64,000 nt of DNA from a virus. Its lineage: Duplodnaviria; Caudoviricetes. Numbering within the stretch: position 1 is the first letter of the stretch; each line of letters opens with the position of its first letter. The translations under genes and the position numbers were made by a program. Below the pieces are notes generated by a model. That model did not search any database and was not told the DNA's origin. It saw only the letters and a list, made by a program, of their open reading frames with translations. The stretch spans positions 1 through 64,000 of the IMG/VR virus record IMGVR_UViG_3300032312_001822. One strand, given 5' to 3'. This document shows positions 36,627 through 49,711 of the stretch, one piece after another.

Positions 36627-36652
36627 GCTCCCCAAATTTGATTTCGTATATT
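36624..36652 (+). promoter_or_regulatory. Early-type promoter
   Basis: TTAGGCTCCCC spacer followed by CGTATATT at 36645. Confidence 0.65.
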
Positions 36653-36676
36653 AAGGTATAATTAAAATTAAATGTT

Positions 36677-37039
36677 ATGACTAAAGCACCAAATAGAGGA
36701 AGACCAACTGAAAATGATACTCCAATACTTCAGTACACTCAGAATTTTAAAGAATATACAGGTGAAACATTTACTTGGAATTGGGACAAAACTCGATTCC
36801 CAAATGGACCATTAAATGTTGAAATTAAAGATCCACAATGGAGTACTTTTGATAGACTAGAAAATAAATTAGCATCATTGTTATCTCAATATGAAGTAAA
36901 AGGTAATGAACGTAAAAAACGAATTACTAAAACTGATAAATTAGAAATAGAAGCATTAGAAAGTGAAATAAATGAAATATGGTATGGTTTCTATCCTGAA
37001 GACAGGCCTAAAGTAAGAAAAAACGCTAAACTTAAATAG
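36677..37039 (+). CDS. Hypothetical protein
   Basis: ORF track; GTTATG start. Confidence 0.7.
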   Translation: MTKAPNRGRPTENDTPILQYTQNFKEYTGETFTWNWDKTRFPNGPLNVEIKDPQWSTFDRLENKLASLLSQYEVKGNERKKRITKTDKLEIEALESEINEIWYGFYPEDRPKVRKNAKLK

Positions 37040-37354
37040 ATGAAGGCTAAACAACTTAAATTTAGAGACTTAGATGAACTAATGGAGTTCAATGAACAAC
37101 AAGCTCGTGACATACACCTTCATACTTTTAAATTCTTAAGATATGAATGGAATAAGAATAAAAAGTTTAGTGATATAGATCTTTTCAATATAGACTTTGA
37201 AGGTGATATAGAATTTGATAATATAGTCTTAACTATTTACTCCACAGAGTGGATTAAGGCTTTAGAATTAGGATTAGAATATTTTGTAGAACAAGAAGAA
37301 TACGAGACATGCTCTCAAATTAGAAATTTATTAATTAAAATTAAAAAGAAATGA
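37040..37354 (+). CDS. Hypothetical protein with UVR-like C-terminal motif
   Basis: EYFVEQEEYETCSQIRNLL. Confidence 0.65.
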   Translation: MKAKQLKFRDLDELMEFNEQQARDIHLHTFKFLRYEWNKNKKFSDIDLFNIDFEGDIEFDNIVLTIYSTEWIKALELGLEYFVEQEEYETCSQIRNLLIKIKKK

Positions 37355-37557
37355 GTTATTTTCAAGCAACAGTAGAAATCCTTGACATGAGTGAAAAAGG
37401 TAAACAAACAAAAAACAGAGAGTTATATTTAGTAGATGCTGTTTCGGTAACAGATGCAGAAGTTAAAGTAACAAAAATGTTTGAAGATGAAGGTTCACAA
37501 GTAGATTTTCAAGTAAAAAGTGTTAGAGAAACAAAGATTTTACAAGTAATTGAATAA
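37351..37557 (+). CDS. DUF4494-like protein (Bacteroidota family)
   Basis: ELYLVDAVSVTDAE...VKSVRETKI pattern. Confidence 0.7.
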   Translation: MSYFQATVEILDMSEKGKQTKNRELYLVDAVSVTDAEVKVTKMFEDEGSQVDFQVKSVRETKILQVIE

Positions 37558-37605
37558 AAGCTTTTTGAAGCACACCCCATCCTTAGATACATATATACGC
37601 CACAA

Positions 37606-37815
37606 ATGAATTACCTTTATAAACATAATGATAAATTATATTTGGTGCTTAGAAACATGCCCGAACATAATTTTAAAAATAAGGATGGGTCTTTTAATAT
37701 GGAGGTTTTAAGGGCATGGCGCGATCATTTAGGTGGCGACCATGTCTTAAAACAACATGACAGATTTTTAATAGTAGAAACAATACAAGAAATAGAATAT
37801 GAAACAAGTAATTAG
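37606..37815 (+). CDS. Hypothetical protein
   Basis: ORF track. Confidence 0.65.
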   Translation: MNYLYKHNDKLYLVLRNMPEHNFKNKDGSFNMEVLRAWRDHLGGDHVLKQHDRFLIVETIQEIEYETSN

Positions 37816-38050
37816 ATTTACAGCCGCTTGGTGCGGCCCATGTAAAGTATATGCCCCAACATTTGAAAGAGTGGCTAATGAGGTATCAGGAGTACAATTT
37901 GAAACAGTAGATGTTGATTCAACAGATCCAAGAATAACTGAAATGGGTATTAGAGGAGTACCAACAACTGTGGTTTTAGAAAACGGTCAGGTTGTTAAAA
38001 AACAATCTGGGAATATGGGAGCAGAACAGTTGAAACAACTTATTGGATAA
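37799..38050 (+). CDS. trxA: Thioredoxin
   Basis: WCGPC active site and cis-Pro loop GVPT. Confidence 0.93.
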   Translation: MKQVIRFTAAWCGPCKVYAPTFERVANEVSGVQFETVDVDSTDPRITEMGIRGVPTTVVLENGQVVKKQSGNMGAEQLKQLIG

Positions 38051-38297
38051 AATTCATATGAATAAGATACAAGAAATTTTTACAGCATGGGCTATAGCAT
38101 TTGACCCAACACAAGAACAATCTGAATTAGCAAGTGAAAGAATTCAAATTTGTAATGAATGTGAATTTAAAAATACCATTCCTATCATACATTGTGGTGA
38201 GTGTGGGTGTGCTTTAAAAGCTAAAATATTTTCACCTGTTAAAGGAGCTTGTCCTAAGAGTAAATGGGATGAAGTTGATAATAAATTCTTACCGTAG
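38043..38297 (+). CDS. Small Cys-rich metal-binding protein
   Basis: CNEC, CGECGC and CP..KW. Confidence 0.7.
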   Translation: MDKIHMNKIQEIFTAWAIAFDPTQEQSELASERIQICNECEFKNTIPIIHCGECGCALKAKIFSPVKGACPKSKWDEVDNKFLP

Positions 38298-38303
38298 GAA
38301 ATG

Positions 38304-38333
38304 TTTGGAAAACTAGAAAACACTTCGTATATT
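38304..38333 (+). promoter_or_regulatory. Early-type promoter of the ligase gene
   Basis: TTTGG at 38304 and CGTATATT at 38326. Confidence 0.7.
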
Positions 38334-38357
38334 AAGGTATAAATAAAAATAAAAGTT

Positions 38358-39473
38358 ATGATATTACCAATTTTATATAAGCGTTCAAATAGTAAAGAAC
38401 ATATCAACCAATGGCAAATTGAAGTTGAAGGAAATAAATTTAGAACTACAACTGGGTTTGTAGGTATGAAGATGTTTACAGGTGATTGGACTGAATGTAC
38501 TCCCAAAAATATAGGTAAAAAGAATTCAACAACAGCTGAAGAACAAGCCTTATTTGAAGCTAATGCACTTCATACTAAACGTAAAGATTTAGGTTATTGG
38601 GAAGATATAAATGACTGTGATAAGAAAGTATTCTTTCAACCTATGTTAGCTCAAGACTATGATAAGAGAAAAGACAAAATTAAATTTCCTATACTTTCTC
38701 AACCTAAATTAGATGGTATCAGATGTATTATTAAATCAGATGGTATGTGGACAAGAAATGGTAAAGAGATTATATCCGCACCTCACATATATGAATATTT
38801 AAAACATATCTTTGATAATCAACCCGACTTAGTATTAGACGGTGAATTATATACTTCAGATAGAGATGTTGATTTTAATACTATTATTTCATGTGTTAGA
38901 AAAACAAAACCCACACAAGCTGATTTAGAAATGTCAGCTAAATATATTGAGTTTTGGGCTTATGATTTATATGATGGTGAAGATTTAACCTATGAAGATA
39001 GAAGAAATTTATTAAAAGAGTTAGAAAGTAGATATAATGTTTATTATCCTTTATACAGAGTAGTTACAACTTATCAATTGCCTGATGAAAAACATGTTAT
39101 GGAACAACTTCAACATTACATTGAACAAGGTTTTGAAGGCCAAATATTAAGAGATCCAAATACACCTTATGAAAATAAAAGATCAAATGGTTTATTAAAA
39201 CATAAAACATTTTTTGATGAGGAGTTTGATATCATTGGTTACGCTGAGGGTGTAGGTAAATTTTCAGGTAAATTAGCAACTTTAAAAGTAGATGTTAATG
39301 GGATTCAAGTTGATTGTACTATAAATGGTACAATGAGTTATTTAGAAGAATTATTTGAAATTAAAGATAGTTTAATAGGTAAAAAAGCAACTGTAAAATA
39401 TTTTGAGAAAACAACTGATAATTCATTACGTTTTCCAAAAGTGATTCAAATTGATAGAAACAGTTATGAATAG
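38358..39473 (+). CDS. lig: ATP-dependent DNA ligase with WGR-like N-terminus
   Basis: PMLAQ, QPKLDGIRC, LDGELY, EGQILR, LLKHK and LRFP. Confidence 0.93.
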   Translation: MILPILYKRSNSKEHINQWQIEVEGNKFRTTTGFVGMKMFTGDWTECTPKNIGKKNSTTAEEQALFEANALHTKRKDLGYWEDINDCDKKVFFQPMLAQDYDKRKDKIKFPILSQPKLDGIRCIIKSDGMWTRNGKEIISAPHIYEYLKHIFDNQPDLVLDGELYTSDRDVDFNTIISCVRKTKPTQADLEMSAKYIEFWAYDLYDGEDLTYEDRRNLLKELESRYNVYYPLYRVVTTYQLPDEKHVMEQLQHYIEQGFEGQILRDPNTPYENKRSNGLLKHKTFFDEEFDIIGYAEGVGKFSGKLATLKVDVNGIQVDCTINGTMSYLEELFEIKDSLIGKKATVKYFEKTTDNSLRFPKVIQIDRNSYE

Positions 39474-39476
39474 AAG

Positions 39477-40094
39477 ATGAAATTAGCAATAGGATTATTT
39501 GGAATACATTATATAAATGAATTGAATCATTGGATGGGTTGGAGAAATGGAGTAGATTATAGAAAAACTTACACTAACCAATCTAATTTAATATACTCTA
39601 AATTCCAAACTAAATATTATTCAGCTACTTATTATTCTGATATTGAAAATGAATTATTATCTAATTATAATTTTTCTAATATCTTATTTAAAGAAGTAGA
39701 TAATTCATCTTCAAATCCCTTAATAAAAAGGAATACTATTTTTAAAAACACAGTTAAATTGATATTGGATAATGATAAAGATTCTGATTTAATTCTTCTA
39801 ACAAGATATGATTTAGAGTTTAAAGGAGGATTTGATTTATTTAATATTGATTATAATAAAATAAATTTCCTTTGTGGAAATAGAAGTGGTAATGATTCTG
39901 ATTTAGTAGATGATAATTTTTATATAATCCCAAAATCTCTTTTAAAATATTTTTATGAAACCATAAATGAAGCACCTGAAAATGTTTCATCTCATTTATA
40001 TCATAAGTTATTTGAAGATTATAATTTTATGATAAATGAATGGTACTACAGTCATGAAAATCCTTTTTATGAAATAACAAGAATTAAATTATGA
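39477..40094 (+). CDS. Glycosyltransferase-like protein (resembles 30098..30811)
   Basis: KLAIGLFG, DLILLTRYD and DDNFY. Confidence 0.5.
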   Translation: MKLAIGLFGIHYINELNHWMGWRNGVDYRKTYTNQSNLIYSKFQTKYYSATYYSDIENELLSNYNFSNILFKEVDNSSSNPLIKRNTIFKNTVKLILDNDKDSDLILLTRYDLEFKGGFDLFNIDYNKINFLCGNRSGNDSDLVDDNFYIIPKSLLKYFYETINEAPENVSSHLYHKLFEDYNFMINEWYYSHENPFYEITRIKL

Positions 40095-40297
40095 GTAGAA
40101 AACCTTATAGAAGATTTTATTGTGAAGATACATCTCCTACATTAAAATCAATAAGAACCGTCAAGAATCATGGTAAAATTAGGACAATAAATGATTTAAC
40201 TTACGAGCAAATAGGGGATGATATGCTGTATTGTTTTAAAACCTCTCGCGTTGTTAAACTTGGCTCTCTAGAATTGGATTCGTATATTAAGACATAA
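40091..40297 (+). CDS. Hypothetical protein
   Basis: ORF track; the 3' end runs through the next promoter. Confidence 0.45.
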   Translation: MSRKPYRRFYCEDTSPTLKSIRTVKNHGKIRTINDLTYEQIGDDMLYCFKTSRVVKLGSLELDSYIKT

Positions 40298-40313
40298 TTA
40301 AAATATAAAAATT

Positions 40314-40508
40314 ATGAGTAAAGAATTAAGTGAATTAAGTATAGATGAAATTAATAATAAATTAATTGAAAACTATAAAACTCAAGTTGAGATTTTAAAA
40401 TCAATGGTGGCTGATAGAGATAAATTAATTTCTATGTATGAAAAACAATTACTAATTCAGGATAAACATATTGATGAAATTAATAAAATTATAAAATCAA
40501 ATTTATAA
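40314..40508 (+). CDS. Coiled-coil hypothetical protein
   Basis: ORF track; cassette gene. Confidence 0.7.
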   Translation: MSKELSELSIDEINNKLIENYKTQVEILKSMVADRDKLISMYEKQLLIQDKHIDEINKIIKSNL

Positions 40509-40512
40509 TAAG

Positions 40513-40791
40513 ATGGAGAAAACAGGCAATCTTGAAAAACTAACTTATGACTTTAATACAGCCTCTAATTTAGAAGTTTGGATGCCTAATTTAGATGGGT
40601 GGTATAGAGTTACAAGTAGAGAATTCAGAAGTTTTAATGGTAAGAGGAGAATTAATGGAGAAGAATATAAAGGAGTTGTATTCCATTATGGAACTAATAA
40701 AAGAGCTAACAAGTCATTAGTAGAAGCTAATAAAATAGCAAGTCATAATTACAAAAGTGTTAGGAGACCCGGAGATCAATTAGTATATTAA
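40513..40791 (+). CDS. Hypothetical protein
   Basis: ORF track; WYRVTSREFRSFNG motif. Confidence 0.7.
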   Translation: MEKTGNLEKLTYDFNTASNLEVWMPNLDGWYRVTSREFRSFNGKRRINGEEYKGVVFHYGTNKRANKSLVEANKIASHNYKSVRRPGDQLVY

Positions 40792-40813
40792 ATTAAATAA
40801 AAAATAAATATAA

Positions 40814-41011
40814 ATGGAGAAATTAGGAGCAATATTAACAGCAGTAGCATTATTAGCATTAGGTGCAATTGTATTAGCATGGCCTGTGCAATTATTATGG
40901 AACTATTCACTTGTGGGGGCAGTAGATGGAATAAATCCAATTACATTTTGGCAAGCATTAGGAATTAATTTCTTATTCGGAATATTATTTAAAAATTCAA
41001 GTTCAAAATAA
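40814..41011 (+). CDS. Two-TM small membrane protein
   Basis: Hydrophobic helices; ITFWQALGI motif. Confidence 0.7.
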   Translation: MEKLGAILTAVALLALGAIVLAWPVQLLWNYSLVGAVDGINPITFWQALGINFLFGILFKNSSSK

Positions 41012-41187
41012 TGAGTTACTATCAAGTTATATTAAAATCAGGAAAAGCACACCCGTCTCTTTATAAAACTATACCTAATGCCATTAAAAATGTAGGAGTA
41101 GAGAATATAAAGGAGATTAAAGAAATTAGATCGGAGTTAGTAGATGCTAAATACGAAGAACCAACAGGAACATCAAATATAGAATAA
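41011..41187 (+). CDS. 58-aa hypothetical protein (not in ORF track)
   Basis: MSYYQVILKSGKAHP...GTSNIE*; TAATG-coupled. Confidence 0.6.
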   Translation: MSYYQVILKSGKAHPSLYKTIPNAIKNVGVENIKEIKEIRSELVDAKYEEPTGTSNIE

Positions 41188-41188
41188 T

Positions 41189-41329
41189 ATGAGCAAAAAC
41201 AGCGCCAAAACAAACTACGAACAATTAATTCAGTGGTTACCAACATTAGGACAACCTAAAGTAAAAAAAGAACAACAGTCAACTAAATTTAGTAAAGCTG
41301 ATCATTACAAGAGTAAAGGGGTTAAGTAA
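41189..41329 (+). CDS. 46-aa basic hypothetical protein (not in ORF track)
   Basis: MSKNSAKTNYEQLIQWL...HYKSKGVK*; the stop abuts the next promoter. Confidence 0.6.
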   Translation: MSKNSAKTNYEQLIQWLPTLGQPKVKKEQQSTKFSKADHYKSKGVK

Positions 41330-41379
41330 GTTTTGCTTTTCAAATATCTTTTCGTATATTTAGGTATAAATGAAATGAA

Positions 41380-41556
41380 ATGAAAACTGTACAATTTACC
41401 TTACAAGAAAGATGGGCTGCTTCAAAGCATATGGTTCAAAAATCTAAAAAAACTTACACTAGAAAAGATAAACATAAAAACAAGGACCATAAAGGTCCTT
41501 CTTTTATTGTAATGTTTGGCTCTCCGGGGTATGCTTCGTATATTAAATCATATTAA
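41380..41556 (+). CDS. ArfA/BrfA-like alternative ribosome-rescue factor candidate (not in ORF track)
   Basis: MKTVQFTLQERWAASKHMVQKSKKTYTRKDKHKNKDHKGPSFIVMFGSPGYASYIKSY*; VxKSKK..YxRKxKH motif; has its own promoter and an internal terminator. Confidence 0.55.
   Translation: MKTVQFTLQERWAASKHMVQKSKKTYTRKDKHKNKDHKGPSFIVMFGSPGYASYIKSY
41482..41508 (+). terminator. Intrinsic terminator inside the ArfA-like ORF
   Basis: aaggacc-ataaa-ggtcctt followed by cttttatt. Confidence 0.7.
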
Positions 41557-41575
41557 TAATTAAAAATAAAATGTT

Positions 41576-42313
41576 ATGACAAATCAAGAAACACAATTAG
41601 AATTAGATTTCGGAATGTTAACAGTTGCTCAACAGGAGCGTGTTGACTCATTTATTCAAAACCAAAAAAATATTATTCAAAATAATATTAAAAATAGTAA
41701 TGCTATTGAAATATTATTAAATGAAGGTGGTTTTATTAAAGGTGTTGATTATGAAAACACTATTAAAACTAAAATTGTAACAGAAGTAAAAGAATTTTAT
41801 TGTGATGGTAATTTTAAAACTGATATTACTTATGAAACAGTAGATGGTAATATTTCAATTTTATATAAAAAATATGATTCTAGAGAAAATAAAATTGTAA
41901 CTCAAAAATCATATGTTGGTAAAGAATTAAATAAACTTCAATGTAGTTCTATCACCCCACAATATAGAGCTTACAAACCGAAATCATTATATGAAAAACT
42001 ATTAGAAAATAATAGTAAAGCTCAAAATGAGTATGATAGTGCTAATCGTGAAAAAGCTGTTATTAATTATACTATTGAAAAATACAAAAATTTATTTCCA
42101 AAAGCTGAAATTACAGTAGGTAAAGATTACTATAAAAATTATAGAAGTAATTATATTGAATTTCCAATTGTAATGGTTAAATTTGAAAGTGGTTCATACA
42201 TTAGCTTCAGAATGGGTTTTAAAATTGATGAAGAAGTTGTTTATAAAAAACATGATGCAGTTGCTTCTCAATTAAGCCCAATTGAAATATTAAATATTTT
42301 TAACCAACAATAA
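41576..42313 (+). CDS. Hypothetical cassette protein
   Basis: ORF track; 245 aa. Confidence 0.8.
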   Translation: MTNQETQLELDFGMLTVAQQERVDSFIQNQKNIIQNNIKNSNAIEILLNEGGFIKGVDYENTIKTKIVTEVKEFYCDGNFKTDITYETVDGNISILYKKYDSRENKIVTQKSYVGKELNKLQCSSITPQYRAYKPKSLYEKLLENNSKAQNEYDSANREKAVINYTIEKYKNLFPKAEITVGKDYYKNYRSNYIEFPIVMVKFESGSYISFRMGFKIDEEVVYKKHDAVASQLSPIEILNIFNQQ

Positions 42314-42599
42314 AGTTTGGCTCCCCTAAATTAAATTCGTATATTAAAGTATAATAATAAAAAATATAAATGTTATGACACAAGTAGAAGAAGTAGTTAA
42401 AATTATTGAAAAAAATAAAAATTTAAAAACCAATGAACTAATTTGGTTACCAGAAGTAAAAAAATATAATTTACCAACTTCTACCATTTTAGTATTAATA
42501 GAGGAAGTAAGAAAAAGTGACTTAAAGTAAAGTTTGGCTCCCCTAAATTGATTTCGTATATTAAAGTATAATAATAAAAAATATAAATGTTATGACACA
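42311..42599 (+). repeat. 72-bp direct repeat pair (70/72 identical) flanking one microgene
   Basis: Copies at 42311-42382 and 42528-42599; each runs from the upstream TAA to ATGACACA. Confidence 0.9.
42375..42530 (+). CDS. 51-aa cassette protein (not in ORF track)
   Basis: MTQVEEVVKIIEKNKNL...VRKSDLK*. Confidence 0.7.
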   Translation: MTQVEEVVKIIEKNKNLKTNELIWLPEVKKYNLPTSTILVLIEEVRKSDLK

Positions 42600-43392
42600 G
42601 TTAAAAAAATTATCAAGAGAGGAGTTAAAATCATTAGCACCTCAAGTATTCAATCATCAAGTTAGTTCTAAGTTAACTGACAAGTATGTTCACATTCCAA
42701 CTGATACTATAGTTGAAGATATGGAAAAGTTAGGTTGGTTCCCATATCAAGTGAAAACAGTTAAGGCTAGAAAATCATCAGGCGCAATGGGTAAACACTT
42801 AATTCAGTTTTTTAATCCTGAAATTGTTATTAATAATGAAGCAGGTGAAGCTGATTTATTCCCAAATTTATTATTAATTAATTCACATGACGGTTCTACT
42901 TCAGTAAGATTTGAAATGGGAGTATTCAGATTAGTATGTGAAAATGGTTTAGTAATTAAATCAAAAGATTTTGGAGGTTTCAAAATGAGACATATGGGTT
43001 ATAATTTTGAAGATTTAAGAACCCATATTAGTTCTTTAGTTAAAACATTACCTGATGTAGTTGATAATTTGAATAAATTCTCTCAAGTAATTATGACACC
43101 TGAGCAACAAAATGAATTTGCAAATAAGGCAATTGAAGCTAGGTTTAATGAAGAAAAAACATTACCTCAAAGTGAAATTGATTATTTATTAACACCTGAA
43201 CGTAAAGAAGATAAAGGTGACAATTTATGGGTTGTACTAAATCGTGTACAAGAAAAATTAACTCAAGGGGGTTTTGGTTATTTAAACGCCAAGGGTAAAT
43301 TAAGAAAAACAAGAGCTGTTAAAAACTTTACAATGGATACTGAAATGAATATGAAGTTATGGGAAATTGCTGAAGAGTATTTAGTTAACTAA
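42592..43392 (+). CDS. DUF932 family protein
   Basis: KYVHIPT, LLINSHDGS, FRLVCENG, NLWVVLNRVQE pattern. Confidence 0.8.
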   Translation: MTQLKKLSREELKSLAPQVFNHQVSSKLTDKYVHIPTDTIVEDMEKLGWFPYQVKTVKARKSSGAMGKHLIQFFNPEIVINNEAGEADLFPNLLLINSHDGSTSVRFEMGVFRLVCENGLVIKSKDFGGFKMRHMGYNFEDLRTHISSLVKTLPDVVDNLNKFSQVIMTPEQQNEFANKAIEARFNEEKTLPQSEIDYLLTPERKEDKGDNLWVVLNRVQEKLTQGGFGYLNAKGKLRKTRAVKNFTMDTEMNMKLWEIAEEYLVN

Positions 43393-43397
43393 AATTA

Positions 43398-43416
43398 AGG
43401 GGAGCTTGGCTCCCCT
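43398..43416 (+). terminator. Hairpin overlapping the promoter -33 element
   Basis: aggggagc-ttg-gctcccct. Confidence 0.55.
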
Positions 43417-43453
43417 AATATAAAATCGTATATTAAGTTAAATAAGATAAAAA

Positions 43454-43612
43454 ATGGAAATAATTGTATTACAATTTTCTTTATGTGGGTTAAATTTATT
43501 CGCGGCCAAAGCAACAAAAGATAGAGGTAGAAACCCAGCTTTTAGTTACTTTGTAGCAGGAATGACTTTTGGTTTTGGGGTTGCAAGATTAATTGAATTA
43601 CTATTAAAATAA
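43454..43612 (+). CDS. 52-aa two-TM cassette protein (not in ORF track)
   Basis: MEIIVLQFSLCGLNLFAAKATKDRGRNPAFSYFVAGMTFGFGVARLIELLLK*. Confidence 0.6.
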   Translation: MEIIVLQFSLCGLNLFAAKATKDRGRNPAFSYFVAGMTFGFGVARLIELLLK

Positions 43613-43617
43613 ATAAG

Positions 43618-43806
43618 ATGACATTAACCCCAATTCAAAAATTAAGAGAAGATATTAGAAGCTTTGATTCAGGTTTGTACTTAGGAGTATTATCTTTATT
43701 AGTTGAAGCAGAAGGTCAAGAGAAAGTATTCTTGGAAAAAGTTTATAACGAACCCAAAACAACTGAGTTTGAAGAATATTATAAACAGTTTGGAAAACCT
43801 AAATAG
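43618..43806 (+). CDS. Hypothetical protein
   Basis: ORF track. Confidence 0.6.
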   Translation: MTLTPIQKLREDIRSFDSGLYLGVLSLLVEAEGQEKVFLEKVYNEPKTTEFEEYYKQFGKPK

Positions 43807-43846
43807 GATTCGTATATTAAAGTATAATAATTAAAAATAGAGAGTT

Positions 43847-44035
43847 ATGATATTACAAGTAATTAATACTAAAAAGGAAAAGTTCAATCAAATTAGAACA
43901 ACTAAAGAAAATTTATTTGCTGATTTAAAATTTCAAGGTTGGCATGTACAAGATTGCAAAATAAGTGAATTAAAAGAAGAATTAGTTCACACATTGTACA
44001 GAAGTGCAGATGGTAAAAACACTAGTACAAGATAA
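43847..44035 (+). CDS. Hypothetical cassette protein
   Basis: ORF track; GTTATG start. Confidence 0.7.
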   Translation: MILQVINTKKEKFNQIRTTKENLFADLKFQGWHVQDCKISELKEELVHTLYRSADGKNTSTR

Positions 44036-44043
44036 AAACAAAG

Positions 44044-44145
44044 AGTCAGGAGTCCATTGGTTGGAAGCACCTCCCCAAGGTTAAGTAACATTAAGGCTGA
44101 CTTTTAATGGCAAAGCTGGAGTAGGTTCAAATCCTACCCTGACTT
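44044..44145 (+). ncRNA. tRNA-like RNA with non-canonical core
   Basis: Acceptor stem agtcagg/cctgact; T arm gtagg-ttcaaat-cctac; D-like arm tcca-ttggt-tgga; 55-nt interior with no canonical anticodon loop; no encoded CCA. Confidence 0.65.
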
Positions 44146-44146
44146 C

Positions 44147-44218
44147 TAATAAATGCCTCATAACCATTTATTATTTTTAATTATCGAAAAAGAGCCTAAC
44201 AGAAATGTTAGGCTTTTT
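44147..44218 (+). ncRNA. Putative antisense sRNA 1 (anti-start hairpin plus terminator)
   Basis: taataaatg-cctcataac-catttatta hairpin, then tttttaattat, then terminator agcctaaca-gaaa-tgttaggct-tttt. Confidence 0.55.
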
Positions 44219-44263
44219 GGGTTTAACTTCGTATATTAGGGCATAATTAAAAATTAATATGTT

Positions 44264-44539
44264 ATGAAAAACGAGAAAGTAGGTTACAGTAGAGAAGCAA
44301 TGATTAAGTTTCTAAAAATTGAAGGTGTTTATGTTATTGGAACAACTGAAGAATTTTCAGGTCAAGAAGGTGGAATTTGGGTTGGGGGTGAAGAAATGGA
44401 TGATTTATTTGAATATTATAATAATAGTTCTAAATTCACATTTGGAGTAGAGAAAAAATTAAACGAAGCTGTTAATAAAAGAGGGTGGTGGTTTAGTTGG
44501 AATGATCCGGGTACAATGATGGTGTGGCCAATTAATTAA
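44264..44539 (+). CDS. Hypothetical cassette protein
   Basis: ORF track; RGWWFSWNDPGT motif. Confidence 0.75.
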   Translation: MKNEKVGYSREAMIKFLKIEGVYVIGTTEEFSGQEGGIWVGGEEMDDLFEYYNNSSKFTFGVEKKLNEAVNKRGWWFSWNDPGTMMVWPIN

Positions 44540-44596
44540 AATTTGGCCCCCCTAAATTGAATTCGTATATTAAAGTATAATTAAAAATTAAATGTT

Positions 44597-44809
44597 ATGA
44601 AAATTATTAAAGTTACAAGTTTATCTGATAAAAAATCAGTTTATCTAAATGTTGAAGCCATAGGACACTTTTACACAGTGCCTGAAAAAAGAGATTATGG
44701 TAGAGTTGAAAAAGTAGAACATACTAGAATTGGAGTTACAACCCACAATAATGGAGGGTTTGAAATAACTGAAACCCCTGAAATGTTAATTAAACTAATT
44801 AATAATTAA
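44597..44809 (+). CDS. Hypothetical cassette protein
   Basis: ORF track; YLNVEAI..EITETPE pattern. Confidence 0.7.
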   Translation: MKIIKVTSLSDKKSVYLNVEAIGHFYTVPEKRDYGRVEKVEHTRIGVTTHNNGGFEITETPEMLIKLINN

Positions 44810-44865
44810 TTGGCTTCTAAATATTAAATTCGTATATTATAGTATAATTAAAAATATAAAAAGTT

Positions 44866-45621
44866 ATGAAAAACATTGAAACATTAAATCAGGAAATTGT
44901 AAAGTTAGAAGAACAAAAAACAAATTTCTTAAATTTAGAACAAGATTTAAAAGATGCAAGATCTAATATCTATGTTAGAGAACAACAAGCATTGAGTGAT
45001 TCTTTATTACCATTTTTTGAAAATTTTAAATATGGTGTTAATATTGAAGTTAAAAGAGACTCTATTTATTTTAAAACTGATCACCCTGATTACACTTATC
45101 AAAAAGAATTATTTAGTATTTATTTAAGAGAAAGATACTCAAGTGAGGGTAAAAAATATGATGGGGCTGATTTATCTTATTACACAACTTCTACTAAAGG
45201 AGAAAATACTTGGGAGTTAAAAAGATTACAATTATTAGGAAGAGTAGCTGAAATTTTAGAAGACCAACAAGGACTTATTGTTGATACAGCTAATGATGTT
45301 TCAAATAAATTCAAAGAAGAATTTAATGAAGTTTATGGTAAAATGGGTGTTGTTGGAAATTCTATTAGAGACTTAAATAACCAAATTAGAGAAATCCAAA
45401 AACAAGTAAAAAGAATTGAATTATTTGGAGAAGGAATCCAATTTGAAAAATCAAGATGCATTACTTTGAAACATAATTATGAACCAAGAGTTGTATCTTT
45501 AAAATTAATTGAAGTTTCTAAATCAGGTAAAAAAGCAACTGCTGTATTTGAGTGGGAGAAAGGAAGAGAATCAAGAGAAGAAGGTGTAAATGTTGAAAAA
45601 ATCATTTACCAAGTTATATAA
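44866..45621 (+). CDS. Coiled-coil hypothetical cassette protein
   Basis: ORF track; 251 aa. Confidence 0.8.
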   Translation: MKNIETLNQEIVKLEEQKTNFLNLEQDLKDARSNIYVREQQALSDSLLPFFENFKYGVNIEVKRDSIYFKTDHPDYTYQKELFSIYLRERYSSEGKKYDGADLSYYTTSTKGENTWELKRLQLLGRVAEILEDQQGLIVDTANDVSNKFKEEFNEVYGKMGVVGNSIRDLNNQIREIQKQVKRIELFGEGIQFEKSRCITLKHNYEPRVVSLKLIEVSKSGKKATAVFEWEKGRESREEGVNVEKIIYQVI

Positions 45622-45683
45622 GTGCCTCATAACCACTTATTATTTTAATTATATTTTGTTAAAGCTCCTTATTAAGGGGCTTT
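45618..45683 (+). ncRNA. Putative antisense sRNA 2 (anti-start hairpin plus hairpin)
   Basis: ataagtg-cctcataac-cacttat hairpin, then tattttaattat, then aaagctcctt-att-aaggggcttt. Confidence 0.55.
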
Positions 45684-45736
45684 GGCTTTCTAAATTATAA
45701 TTCGTATATTTAAGTATAATTAAAAAATAAAATGTT

Positions 45737-45973
45737 ATGATGAGTTTTAAATTGCAAGATGAAGCAAATGGGTCTTTTAAAATATTTGATTTAAGACAAG
45801 CTATAGGTAGAGAATTTAGTGATAATCACTCTCCAACTTTAAGGAGTAAATTATTAGAAGTAAGTGATTGTGGGAATGTTTGTACTGTAATTAGTGTAGA
45901 AGCCTATAATAAACAAGGGGGTAAAGTAAGTAAACAACCTTCTTATTTAACTTGGAATGCCTTATTTTATTAA
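45737..45973 (+). CDS. Hypothetical cassette protein
   Basis: ORF track. Confidence 0.7.
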   Translation: MMSFKLQDEANGSFKIFDLRQAIGREFSDNHSPTLRSKLLEVSDCGNVCTVISVEAYNKQGGKVSKQPSYLTWNALFY

Positions 45974-46030
45974 AATTTGGCTTTTATAGGTCAGCTTCGT
46001 ATATTAAAGTATAATTAAAAATTAAATGTT

Positions 46031-46156
46031 ATGAAAAAAATAGTATTGTTAGGAGTTATTTATTGGGAAGTAGAAATTGGAGGGGTAACTCATATGTCAT
46101 TCAACCCTCAAGAATTAGTTGTAAAAATGGCCTCAATGGGTTTAAGTTTAAATTAA
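46031..46156 (+). CDS. 41-aa cassette protein (not in ORF track)
   Basis: MKKIVLLGVIYWEVEIGG...MGLSLN*. Confidence 0.6.
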   Translation: MKKIVLLGVIYWEVEIGGVTHMSFNPQELVVKMASMGLSLN

Positions 46157-46168
46157 AAATATAAAGTT

Positions 46169-46387
46169 ATGAGTTTACATTCAGTTTACATATGTGAAGA
46201 TTTTGAAATTGGTAATGGTATTTTAACTATTTGGGATGCCAAAGAAGTAGCTAAGGTAAAAGATATAGATGGTTTTAATAGAATTAATGAAATTCTAATT
46301 TCTGAAACGGGAGTATTACCTAATGGAATTATATGTCCTAATTTATTTCATAATTCTGGATTTTTTGATATTATACTTTTTGAATAA
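46169..46387 (+). CDS. Hypothetical cassette protein
   Basis: ORF track; cassette-type start region without its own promoter. Confidence 0.7.
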   Translation: MSLHSVYICEDFEIGNGILTIWDAKEVAKVKDIDGFNRINEILISETGVLPNGIICPNLFHNSGFFDIILFE

Positions 46388-46444
46388 TATTTGGCTTTTA
46401 TAAGTCAGCTTCGTATATTAGGGTATAATTAAAAATATAAAGTT

Positions 46445-46747
46445 ATGACAAAGAAAGAAAGATTAAGATTAAATACAGTTCATGTAATTGAAATGGTACA
46501 AAAGAATTTTGAAGTAAGTACTGATTTTTGTGATGATGAAGGTCATGGTTATTTTACTTTTGGGGTAATGAAAGATGGAGTAGAATACTTATTTGATTTA
46601 AGTAGAAGAGATTTTAGTGTTATTATCCATAAAATAAGAGGTGAAAAAGATTATGAAATTGGAGCTGATTTGGAGGCTGAATTAGAAAGATTTATTTTCT
46701 TAGAATTAGAAATTTCAAACGCCCGTATTGATAATATGATTAAATAA
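46445..46747 (+). CDS. Hypothetical cassette protein
   Basis: ORF track. Confidence 0.7.
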   Translation: MTKKERLRLNTVHVIEMVQKNFEVSTDFCDDEGHGYFTFGVMKDGVEYLFDLSRRDFSVIIHKIRGEKDYEIGADLEAELERFIFLELEISNARIDNMIK

Positions 46748-46812
46748 TATAATTTGGCTTTATTAAATTAAATTCGTATATTATAGTATAATAATTAAAA
46801 ATATAAAATGTT

Positions 46813-47178
46813 ATGGCAACAAGATCAAGAATCGGAATCGAAAATGAAAATGGTACAATTAGTTCAATTTATTGTCATGGGGATGGTTACCCAGATGGTG
46901 TAGGGGCAACTTTAGAAGAACATTACTCCAATAGACAAAAATTAAGAATGTTAATCAATTTAGGTGACATTAGTATTTTAGGAGAACATGTAGCAACAAT
47001 GGATGAACACTCTTTTGATAATAGAAAAGAAGGTGTTACAGTAGCTTACCATAGAGATAGAGGTGAAGAAAAACGAGAAGCAAGAGAAGATAGCTCATTA
47101 GATTCATTTTTAAAATCCGGATATGAACAATATGGTTATGTTTATACTAAGGATGAAAAATGGGTAATGTTTGAATAA
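46813..47178 (+). CDS. Conserved phage early protein of unknown function
   Basis: MATRSRIG..SIYCHGDGYP..GVG..L..HY, a widespread phage family pattern. Confidence 0.75.
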   Translation: MATRSRIGIENENGTISSIYCHGDGYPDGVGATLEEHYSNRQKLRMLINLGDISILGEHVATMDEHSFDNRKEGVTVAYHRDRGEEKREAREDSSLDSFLKSGYEQYGYVYTKDEKWVMFE

Positions 47179-47184
47179 TAAAAA

Positions 47185-47198
47185 GGGGCTTCGGCCCC
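47185..47198 (+). terminator. c(UUCG)g hairpin
   Basis: ggggc-ttcg-gcccc after the stop codon; weak + strand U tract. Confidence 0.55.
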
Positions 47199-47260
47199 CA
47201 TATTATTTGGCTCCTATATATATATTTCGTATATTATAGTATAATTAAAAATATAGAGTT

Positions 47261-47434
47261 ATGACACAAGAAGAAATGAATACCGAAAATGCTTTAGTAA
47301 ATGAGAAATATGAAGTGATTAGAAAATTAGATGCTTACTTACATATTGAGTCTTTTAATAGAACTAAATTAACAAGTGAAATGTTAAAGGAGTTAAGAGG
47401 TAAAATTGACGAAATGTTATTATCCGATTTTTAA
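47261..47434 (+). CDS. 57-aa cassette protein (not in ORF track)
   Basis: MTQEEMNTENAL...EMLLSDF*. Confidence 0.65.
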   Translation: MTQEEMNTENALVNEKYEVIRKLDAYLHIESFNRTKLTSEMLKELRGKIDEMLLSDF

Positions 47435-47493
47435 TATTTGGCTTTTAAGATTATTATTCGTATATTAAGGTATAATTAAAAAGATAAATTGTT

Positions 47494-47715
47494 ATGAAAG
47501 TAAAAGATTTAATTAAGTTTTTAAGTGAACAAGATCAAAATTTAGAAGTAGTTATTAAATATATTGATCCTTCAAATTGGAATTATGAATTACCTTTAAG
47601 AGCTCAAGATGTTTATGTGGACGAAGTATTTGAGGTGGATGAAGCTAATTTAGAAGAGGGTCAATCTATTGAATCAGGGGATGAGTGTTTGGTAATTGAA
47701 TTAAGTTTTGAATAA
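47494..47715 (+). CDS. Acidic cassette protein
   Basis: MKVKDLIKFL..DQNLEVV, a common phage small-protein pattern. Confidence 0.7.
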   Translation: MKVKDLIKFLSEQDQNLEVVIKYIDPSNWNYELPLRAQDVYVDEVFEVDEANLEEGQSIESGDECLVIELSFE

Positions 47716-47721
47716 CATATT

Positions 47722-47826
47722 ATGAAAGAGAAATTATATATTGTTGATGGATTTGAAATATGGGCGGATAGTGAAGCCGGGGCTATTGAAAAATATAGAT
47801 TATGGTGTTTACCATGTTGGGATTAA
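47722..47826 (+). CDS. 34-aa protein (not in ORF track)
   Basis: MKEKLYIVDGFEIWADSEAGAIEKYRLWCLPCWD*; the stop abuts the next promoter. Confidence 0.55.
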   Translation: MKEKLYIVDGFEIWADSEAGAIEKYRLWCLPCWD

Positions 47827-47886
47827 TATTTGGCTTTTAAAATTATATTTCGTATATTATAGTATAATAATTAAAAATAATATGTT

Positions 47887-48063
47887 ATGGAAAGTAGATT
47901 TGGTATTGAATTAGAGGTATTAGAAAAAGCATTACAAAATATGATCAGTGAAGGTTATATGGGTAAAGATGATACAATTGAAGATTTAGAAGATTTAGCT
48001 TATACATCTTGTGAAGGATTAGCTTGGTACGCCAAATCTAAAATATATGATTGGGCAAATTAA
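47887..48063 (+). CDS. 58-aa cassette protein (not in ORF track)
   Basis: MESRFGIELEV...IYDWAN*. Confidence 0.65.
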   Translation: MESRFGIELEVLEKALQNMISEGYMGKDDTIEDLEDLAYTSCEGLAWYAKSKIYDWAN

Positions 48064-48122
48064 TATTTGGCCTTTAAAAATATTATTCGTATATTAAGGT
48101 ATAATTAAAAAGATAAATTGTT

Positions 48123-48290
48123 ATGGAAAATCAAGTTACAGAATTAGAGTTAATGTTCATTAGGTTAGAAAGATTAGAATTACAATTAGTGGAAAACGAT
48201 GTAATAGAAGATGGAGACATGATAAGTGAAGCATTGGGTGAATTGAAAGAGAGATTGTATGACAAAATAAGAGAAGTGAGCAACGAATAA
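48123..48290 (+). CDS. 55-aa acidic cassette protein (not in ORF track)
   Basis: MENQVTELELMF...IREVSNE*. Confidence 0.65.
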   Translation: MENQVTELELMFIRLERLELQLVENDVIEDGDMISEALGELKERLYDKIREVSNE

Positions 48291-48757
48291 AATTCAGTAT
48301 ATGAAACCAATAATATTCTATCATACGGAGAAAGAGACATGGGTAAAAGTAGATGAAATACTCACCGGGGAAACGATCATTTCCTCACCCGTTTCACCCC
48401 TCACATAATGTGACAAATTGGAATTAATATACCCTAACAAGTAATGGGATATGGATATTGGGATATAGGGATAGTATAGTATGTGGAAAATAGATTATAT
48501 GGGATGTGGAGATACTAGGGCAGGGTACGTGACTTCATTGAGGTGGAAGGCCAAGCCTTACTCGAACAGAGGAGTATATACCTTACCCTAAATAATGTTT
48601 TAAAACGCTGATTATACCCTGAAAAATAAATGTTAAAATGTTTGGCTTAGTTAAAAAGGTTTTATAAATTAAATTAAAAAAGGGTTTTAAACGCTGCCAT
48701 GTTGTGAACCTAAAGTAGACGCGGCCCCACTCCCCCGGGGCCCCTACTTAAATTTTG
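48291..48757 (+). other. Non-coding region with repeats, palindromes and G/C-biased tracts
   Basis: No + strand ORF. GGATAT-like repeats at 48446-48475, TCACA-TAA-TGTGA, duplicated ttttaaa(a)cgctg, and a GC-rich hairpin at 48718-48748. Confidence 0.5.
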
Positions 48758-48814
48758 TTTGGCTATTGGAAAATTGCTTCGTATATTATAGCATAATTAA
48801 AAAAATAAAACGTT

Positions 48815-49102
48815 ATGACAAAGCAAGAATTTTTATCGGGTAAGTGTTTTACAATTGGGGCTCCGACTTATAAGGGTGCTAACACCTATAGCTATTATAA
48901 AAGTGATAGGAATGAGGGTTGTATAATGAGACAATCAAGATCATCATTAGACAATAGAATAGTATTAAATGATTATGAGTGTAACGCTCCAACAGTGGGG
49001 TCAAAATCGTTTACTGGATTTACTTACGTAATGAAAAAGAAAGTAGTGGTTAAATACAGGTTTGAGGACCTAATATTGTTTGAGGAAACTGTAGGGGAGT
49101 AA
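48815..49102 (+). CDS. Hypothetical cassette protein
   Basis: ORF track. Confidence 0.7.
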   Translation: MTKQEFLSGKCFTIGAPTYKGANTYSYYKSDRNEGCIMRQSRSSLDNRIVLNDYECNAPTVGSKSFTGFTYVMKKKVVVKYRFEDLILFEETVGE

Positions 49103-49136
49103 ATCCCCTGCATAGTTATAGAGAAAATCTATAGCA

Positions 49137-49370
49137 ATGAACATAACTAAACAACTAAGTGGGTTAAGCACCCGTCTAAACGAATTACTTGAGGATATGG
49201 ACCGAATAATGGACTATATCGATAATGACGAATTATATAACGAGATAGACAATAATGTCAAATCTCAGCTGGAAAACGCAGTTACGCACCTAGATATCGC
49301 AGTTGACGACCTTAATGACGGAATGTATGAAGATACGCCCGTGGACGAAGAAGATTTAGATTGGGATTAG
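49137..49370 (+). CDS. Acidic helical hypothetical protein
   Basis: ORF track. Confidence 0.65.
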   Translation: MNITKQLSGLSTRLNELLEDMDRIMDYIDNDELYNEIDNNVKSQLENAVTHLDIAVDDLNDGMYEDTPVDEEDLDWD

Positions 49371-49711
49371 AAAAGAATGATTTTGTATCCTTACAGTTCG
49401 GACCCGTTCGGTAATGGATTAAAAACGTATAGCCACGCGTCGTTGCTGTCCATCGACGGATCCGCGGGATCACAGGACAAGATTATGGTGATAAGAGATC
49501 GAAAACACTCTTTACCCAACCCCCTTGTATATACAAATATATATGAGTTTCAAATAACCCCTTTGATATAAGATTCATAAGGGTTAAAAAAAGAGATCTT
49601 AAAAAGATTTTACCAAATAAAAAAGTATATACAAAATAAATGGGGAGTGGTTTGGCTTCCCAATTTCTGTTTCGTATATTGTTACATAATAATAATAAAA
49701 ACAAATAGGTT

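Follow-up and report, generated by a model that had tools for sequence, protein, structure and literature searches.

An in-frame terminator-like hairpin in a small gene of a Flavobacterium-type phage, and the case for a candidate ArfA/BrfA-like ribosome-rescue factor made from non-stop mRNA

The phage DNA analysed here, a single stretch of 64,000 nucleotides (the window) taken from a 90.6-kb IMG/VR virus record that is closest, among named phages, to the immuto group of Flavobacterium phages, contains on its + strand a small gene (41380..41556) with a terminator-like hairpin inside the reading frame. The gene is real, protein-coding and conserved, and 70 of the 87 distinct loci of its own clade carry a hairpin with a T-rich tail at the same position before the stop codon. 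On the basis of its sequence, the gene may encode an ArfA/BrfA-like, release-factor-dependent phage rescue factor of about 43 residues that is made from non-stop mRNA, a reading which we hold tentatively, as close to an even call.

The small gene, its promoter cassette and the in-frame hairpin

The ORF, as delimited by the ORF list, comprises 58 codons (58 aa) from its start to the first in-frame stop (41554-41556). The earlier note had singled it out for the motifs VQKSKK and TYTRKDKH, and it was borne out as a conserved protein gene with homologues. Alignments and an AlphaFold2 model define residues 1-35 (41380..41484, + strand) as the conserved coding core, in which an extended N-terminus leads into a short predicted helix (residues 8-15) and then a basic tail. 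After residue 35, both the length and the sequence of the tail are variable among the homologues. In the window, the non-conserved read-through tail SFIVMFGSPGYASYIKSY (41510..41556, + strand) is encoded by the T tract together with the overlapping promoter module at 41515-41544, which serves the next gene; the last 13 codons of the ORF are this module in translation. The hydrophobic read-through tail described previously is accordingly present in the letters, but it amounts to a T tract plus a promoter and is unconserved in homologues. The start codon (41380) is overlapped by a threefold ATGAA repeat (41370..41383, + strand) containing two 2-codon mini-ORFs (ATG AAA TGA), which is not conserved in the closest relative L002 (96% identical).

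Approximately 22 copies of one promoter-plus-leader module were located on the + strand between 36.6 and 49.7 kb (36643-49680), with TTTGGCT-N13-TTCGTATATT, a TATAAT-like box and an A-rich leader ending in GTTATG as its elements. Exact and one-mismatch matches amounted to 31, against 11 expected. The promoter module of the small gene, TTTTGCT-N13-TTCGTATATT-TAGGTATAA (41331..41369, + strand), is a one-mismatch copy of this repeated early-gene cassette, the copy itself (41331-41360) beginning with TTTTGCT in place of TTTGGCT; the own promoter that had been claimed for the ORF is this copy. The next gene (41576..42313, + strand, 245 aa), which marks the feature boundary and lies outside the feature, has a full module copy of its own at 41515-41544.

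Each cassette copy serves one small gene, and several upstream ORFs terminate within the next cassette. For example, a 68-aa ORF (40091-40297) enters the next cassette in the frame of the small gene, ending in ...LGS...DSYIKT, with no hairpin before it, and overlap of ORF and promoter as such is therefore common here. No RF-1/ArfB-type domain and no tmRNA were found in the phage record, which is about 55% complete.

The hairpin AAGGACC-ATAAA-GGTCCTT (41482..41500, + strand) begins at codon 35 and comprises a stem of 7 pairs (4 of them G-C) and a 5-nt loop, followed by the T tract CTTTTATTG (41501..41509, + strand). The free energy of the 19-nt hairpin was -9.5 kcal/mol, or -12.3 kcal/mol including the flanking A/T extension, and 56 nt lie between the end of the stem and the last base of the stop codon. 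The sequence 41482-41509 contains the two elements of an intrinsic terminator, i.e. a G+C-rich hairpin and then a T-rich tract; in the terminator scan, five such sites were found in 7 kb, against 1.3 expected. A strong intrinsic terminator in frame had been proposed for this position, of which the in-frame location was upheld, whereas the strength is moderate (7-bp stem, interrupted T tract).

Transcripts are usually released 7-9 nt after a terminator stem. With the predicted 3′ end at this distance, within the T tract, the transcript would have no stop codon and its final complete codon would fall at about position 43, giving a product of about 43 residues. Termination at the hairpin in vivo would be expected on these grounds. 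Elsewhere in the region, the compact G+C-rich hairpins that precede promoter modules come after the stop of the upstream gene, so that the order of hairpin, promoter and stop is exceptional in this genome.

Distribution of the protein family and of the hairpin

A tblastn search recovered gp147 (49 aa) of Flavobacterium phage immuto, which shows 75% identity over residues 1-43; the DNA flanking the small gene was not alignable between the window and immuto. A search of 5.8 billion proteins resulted in 21 close clusters, and a profile search of 1.84 billion representatives in 204 clusters at E<=1e-3, nearly all of 35-80 aa and almost all from phage or metagenome DNA. Residues T7, E10, W12, K23, K24, Y26, R28 and K31 were invariant in the first 31 sequences, with K29 and H32 near-invariant. 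When 185,579 species genomes were scanned with the pattern, only nine loci of the family were recovered, and among 201 genomes of one carrier's family the single match was the carrier itself (0/200 sampled relatives). The family is essentially one of phages or mobile elements.

One copy was found in a cultured genome, on a 247 kb contig of Flavobacterium aciduliphilum DSM 25663 (L022). It encodes 38 aa with an ordinary stop, and has a SIR2-family gene on one side and SLOG/DprA-like and DUF4116 genes on the other, surroundings that look like a mobile or defence-type island.

No meaningful match for the family was obtained from PHROGs or NCBIfam, and a PDB search with the single sequence returned noise only. 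In Pfam, only DUF7230 (PF23876) matched, below its gathering threshold, the window protein reaching 12.2 bits against the 27-bit threshold and 23 of 31 members matching weakly (best E 4.6e-4). DUF7230, which was absent from the genomes tried and for which no paper naming the domain was found, may be a related family.

For the hairpin, about 190 loci from viral and metagenome contigs, reduced to 145 distinct ones, were each scored for the core, the stop, and any hairpin with a T-rich tail after it, and the clade of the window was defined by the signature QERW or AASRH. Within this clade of 87 distinct loci, 70 had the hairpin and T tail before the stop and 17 had other outcomes. None of the 58 distinct loci in the rest of the family had this arrangement: the stop was followed by a hairpin in 16, the stop was inside a hairpin in six, and there was no hairpin in 36. 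In the 70 clade loci, the hairpin begins at most about 18 nt past the core, and 10-208 nt separate its end from the stop. As a positive control, the same script recovered the known in-frame hairpin of E. coli arfA.

The folding energies of the 48 nt after the core followed the same division, with a mean of -12.1 kcal/mol in the clade (z -3.4 versus shuffles; 86% below z -2) and -3.2 kcal/mol in the rest of the family (z -0.45). On the tree, which is poorly resolved, the hairpin trait was clustered, requiring nine changes versus 40 in shuffles.

The hairpins were found as 43 variants with 27 distinct inner 6-bp helices, their stem arms including AAGGACC/GGTCCTT, AAGGGCTC/GGGCCCTT and AAGAGTC/GACTCTT. 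When arms were exchanged between loci, full pairing resulted in only 20% of the combinations, which indicates compensatory change in the stems. At the protein level the stems read differently from locus to locus (KDHKGPS, KGSQQGPS, KSRKDSS), and selection therefore acts on the RNA. No consensus structure emerged from RNAalifold when 39 hairpin regions were aligned with MAFFT, loops of unequal length being misaligned; per-locus folding, shuffle z-scores and the arm-swap control were used instead.

The T tracts are weak at several loci, e.g. TTTCCCCTT. In the immuto-like locus L004:1501-1641, as compared with L001:3001-3230, a deletion has removed the T tract along with about 40 nt past the hairpin, which is itself still in frame. 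An array of CTTTAAGTTAAAG-like repeats was observed downstream of the immuto-type genes. A DUF932 gene (42592-43392 in the window) adjoins the small gene in 13 of the 145 distinct loci, in both clades, and often starts at, or a few bases from, the stop of the small gene; loci with this neighbour include L011, L014, L017, L065, L075, L172, L188, L143 and L070.

That homologues keep the in-frame terminator, as the earlier note would have it, holds for the gene's own clade (70/87, with compensatory changes) but not for the wider family (0/58), in which stops are ordinary. Non-stop expression, as predicted from these loci, is a trait of one clade and not of the whole family. Since most of the family has ordinary stops, it does not seem to be needed for the function of the protein.

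Likeness to ArfA, proposed mechanism and alternatives

The profile of 31 members, when run against 177,635 distinct PDB sequences, gave four matches at E<=10, all of which were ArfA chains (best E 0.03). With 147 members in the profile, ArfA was again first (E 0.017) and accounted for six of the top seven matches. In the profile alignment, family residues 16-40 fall on ArfA residues 26-53, KH on KH, the aligned pattern being R-x-x-V-x-K-x-K-K, a 3-residue gap at the ArfA GKG, and then Y-x-R-K-x-K-H, with R16-x-x-V19-x-K21 on ArfA R26-V29-K31. Within ArfA 26-53 lie the strand Q27-E30, by which RF2 is recruited, a loop that closes off the mRNA entry channel, and KH, the only motif common to ArfA and BrfA (PMC8012679).

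The hhalign comparison with an ArfA alignment, which was shallow and composed of Enterobacteriaceae only, returned P-values of 2.8e-4 to 5e-4 with a probability of only 31-41%. The region matched to ArfA is short and lysine-rich, and the E-values are marginal. When ArfA residues 1-55, or 26-55 alone, were shuffled 20,000 times with their composition kept, the real score was never reached, and the match is therefore more than composition. A language-model feature search placed an ArfA cluster at rank 12, which is of value as a lead only. In the AlphaFold2 model (mean pLDDT 81), helix 8-15 is followed by an extended chain and is located where ArfA has its helix 15-24; Foldseek with the 40-residue model found no match in the PDB.

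The Pfam ArfA model PF03889 matched neither the window protein, the immuto homologue nor the 31 family members at E<=10. The KGKGS loop is missing, a 3-residue gap being present in every alignment at the GKG of the KKGKGS motif, the absence of which had already been noticed in the single sequence. ArfA residues 1-14 have no counterpart, since nothing upstream of ArfA residue 25 aligns and about 7 residues precede the phage helix, and ArfA F25 aligns with Ser/Thr in the phage family. In ArfA, the N-terminal residues 1-14 and the A18 region are needed for RF2 activation, upon which residues 1-14 become ordered, and F25 helps to explain the preference for RF2.

Because PF03889, the KGKGS loop, the N-terminus and F25 are all lacking, the gene was not filed as a member of the ArfA family, and membership of the ArfA, BrfA or ArfT families could not be demonstrated for it by the comparisons made. 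The likeness suggested in the earlier note was thus supported in part: the basic motif has ArfA as its top PDB match and passes the shuffle control (0/20,000), but has no PF03889 match and no KGKGS, and in the profile searches ArfA came first whereas BrfA gave no match and the ArfT motif was absent. The phage protein probably works like ArfA.

A second protein family, of 60 aa and from Bacteroidaceae/Prevotella (323 clusters; e.g. L028:2890-3069 and loci L195-L204), was reached via a scan hit. Its C-terminal module (I/V)HKSKKTYTRKxKHK is the same as in the phage family, and the two families were aligned by hhalign with a probability of 95% (E 3e-8). Unlike the phage family, it has a longer conserved N-terminal half of its own, LDAIKAMRRG..REAEQELLGPGFH. 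The genes are chromosomal and single copy, occur in 22 of 151 sampled genomes, and have ordinary stops with no in-frame hairpin; their neighbourhood is not conserved (glycoside hydrolases, and RtcB in one locus), and the family profile matched BrfA at only E=2. The module common to both families suggests a functional, probably ribosome-directed tail that is used by hosts and phages; the Bacteroidaceae family is a candidate for a host-encoded ribosome-directed factor.

If the phage protein is a rescue factor, transcription from its own early promoter would stop at the in-frame hairpin and T tract, so that most of the mRNA would be without a stop codon, and ribosomes would reach the mRNA 3′ end and stall. 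As long as trans-translation by the host (tmRNA-SmpB) has spare capacity, the nascent peptide would be tagged and degraded. Once trans-translation is saturated, e.g. by many truncated mRNAs during infection, the untagged peptide would build up. Its basic tail (the K-KK, Y-RK and KH positions) would then go into the empty mRNA channel of the stalled 30S, and the R-x-x-V-x-K strand with the short helix would recruit and activate the host release factor, leading to peptidyl-tRNA hydrolysis. The relatives with ordinary stops would be produced constitutively, as is ArfT. In this scheme the termination in vivo, the tmRNA tagging, the ribosome binding, the recruitment of the release factor and any benefit to the phage are transferred by analogy from ArfA and BrfA, and a switch-on when host defences cut mRNA is speculation.

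Several features of the loci would also suit an ordinary small basic phage protein, whose 3′ end overlaps the terminator of the unit by chance, termination being leaky or occurring after the stop so that the full ORF is translated. ORFs here often run into the next promoter module, as at 40091-40297, most family members have ordinary stops, and in 24 of the 70 hairpin loci the stop is only 10-15 nt past the stem, where a slightly later 3′ end would include it. We consider this explanation unlikely, though deserving of real weight, and we judge in the same way its corollary that the marginal ArfA match reflects convergence of lysine-rich sequence. The distribution of the hairpin (0/58 versus 70/87) is unlike random overlap, the tails past the hairpin are unconserved in length and sequence, and the other terminators of the genome come after the stop. 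The order-specific ArfA match survives 20,000 shuffles, and the recurrence of the tail motif in the unrelated-looking Bacteroidaceae family points to a functional module.

A peptide that binds the ribosome without rescuing it could, as an occupant of the channel or decoding site, block or redirect tmRNA-SmpB, ArfB or idle ribosomes, and would be a phage takeover or anti-defence device and not a rescue factor. It is only the ribosome- and channel-binding region that resembles ArfA, the activating ArfA N-terminus being missing; the gene lies within an early cassette array of host-takeover type, and the family is essentially phage-only (1/201 sampled host-family genomes). The R-x-x-V-x-K strand, which recruits RF2 in ArfA, is nevertheless matched too, a rescue inhibitor made from non-stop mRNA would hamper its own release, and only true rescue factors are known to have the non-stop layout (PMC8012679). 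Such a blocker therefore seems rather improbable to us.

A leader peptide or attenuator, in which a ribosome on the small ORF prevents the terminator and gates read-through into the downstream gene, would account for a hairpin within the translated frame, the geometry being such that a ribosome could melt it. The downstream gene, however, has its own full promoter module (41515-41544), and the peptide is strongly conserved in about 200 clusters, many of them without any hairpin, which is unlike a mere leader peptide; we regard attenuation as very improbable. That the unit from promoter to terminator makes no protein and is instead a small non-coding RNA (about 140 nt), as the short transcript bounded by promoter and terminator and the lack of a PHROGs, Pfam or NCBIfam entry might suggest, is hardly credible in view of the protein-level conservation despite diverged DNA, the invariant residues and the open frame in all homologues. 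An Rfam scan of 40-43 kb at E<=1 returned nothing, and an sRNA reading was rejected, the whole promoter-to-terminator unit folding no better than shuffles (z -0.43).

For the rescue-factor reading, it is possible, if doubtful, that the gene is a virus-encoded, release-factor-dependent rescue factor in which non-stop self-regulation was reached independently or by distant descent. The phage would in this way sense saturated trans-translation, e.g. upon mRNA cleavage driven by the phage or by defence, and free stalled ribosomes for its own synthesis. The literature search found no report of a virus- or phage-encoded Arf, nor of an ArfA-like system linked to Bacteroidota. If the reading is true, release of stalled ribosomes switched on by tmRNA failure would represent a new form of host takeover or counter-defence, with relevance to RNA-cleaving abortive-infection systems. 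The tail module shared with the chromosomal Bacteroidaceae family would point to a broader class of rescue factors in the phylum that has so far gone unrecognised, and the recurring in-frame terminators would make non-stop self-regulation a general design principle. The reading is directly testable, as the homologue gp147 belongs to a cultured phage-host pair, Flavobacterium phage vB_FspM_immuto and Flavobacterium sp. LMO8.

Comparison with known rescue systems

To our knowledge, no genes other than those of the rescue factors ArfA and BrfA have been described with the non-stop layout of an in-frame terminator (PMC8012679), and the alternative rescue factors recognised so far (ArfA, BrfA, ArfT, ArfB) are all cellular. 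ArfT of Francisella tularensis (40 aa) is near in size to the 37-40 aa family members with ordinary stops and is likewise basic near the C-terminus. It has an ordinary stop and no in-frame terminator (PMC6299226), and its KKGGSTNKK motif places it in a family of KGG-repeat type (PMC6514570). Kinship with ArfT was rejected, the KKGGSTNKK or KGG-type motif being absent from all aligned members.

In BrfA of B. subtilis (YqkK, PDB 6SZS), as is predicted for the phage gene, a Rho-independent terminator precedes the stop within the ORF; BrfA is regulated by trans-translation, and its KH motif belongs to the basic C-terminal part of the protein, which is inserted into the mRNA channel (PMC8012679). 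BrfA differs in its own N-terminal helix, which binds between the subunits, and in belonging to a different phylum, and 6SZS chain y was absent among the PDB matches of the phage-family profiles at E<=10.

ArfA (PF03889; E. coli YhdL) occurs only in gamma- and some beta-proteobacteria, whereas the phage gene is found in phages of Bacteroidota; in a survey of 15,259 genomes, arfA was present in 0 of 1,956 genomes of the FCB group (Fibrobacterota-Chlorobiota-Bacteroidota) (PMC11633108). The N-terminus of the phage protein is shorter by about 10 residues and F25 is not conserved, and the hairpin of the phage gene is short and of intrinsic-terminator type, whereas E. coli arfA has a long stem cut by RNase III. 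Common to the two is a small basic protein with a short helix, predicted in the case of the phage, just upstream of the aligned stretch, in which R-x-x-V-x-K-x-K-K ... Y-x-R-K-x-K-H of the phage family matches ArfA residues 26-45. The read-through tail is unconserved and hydrophobic in both. In both, the hairpin lies inside the ORF a few codons past KH, which leaves the mRNA with no stop, and about 10 residues follow KH in the mature product; for the phage gene, the non-stop mRNA and the end of the product are predictions.
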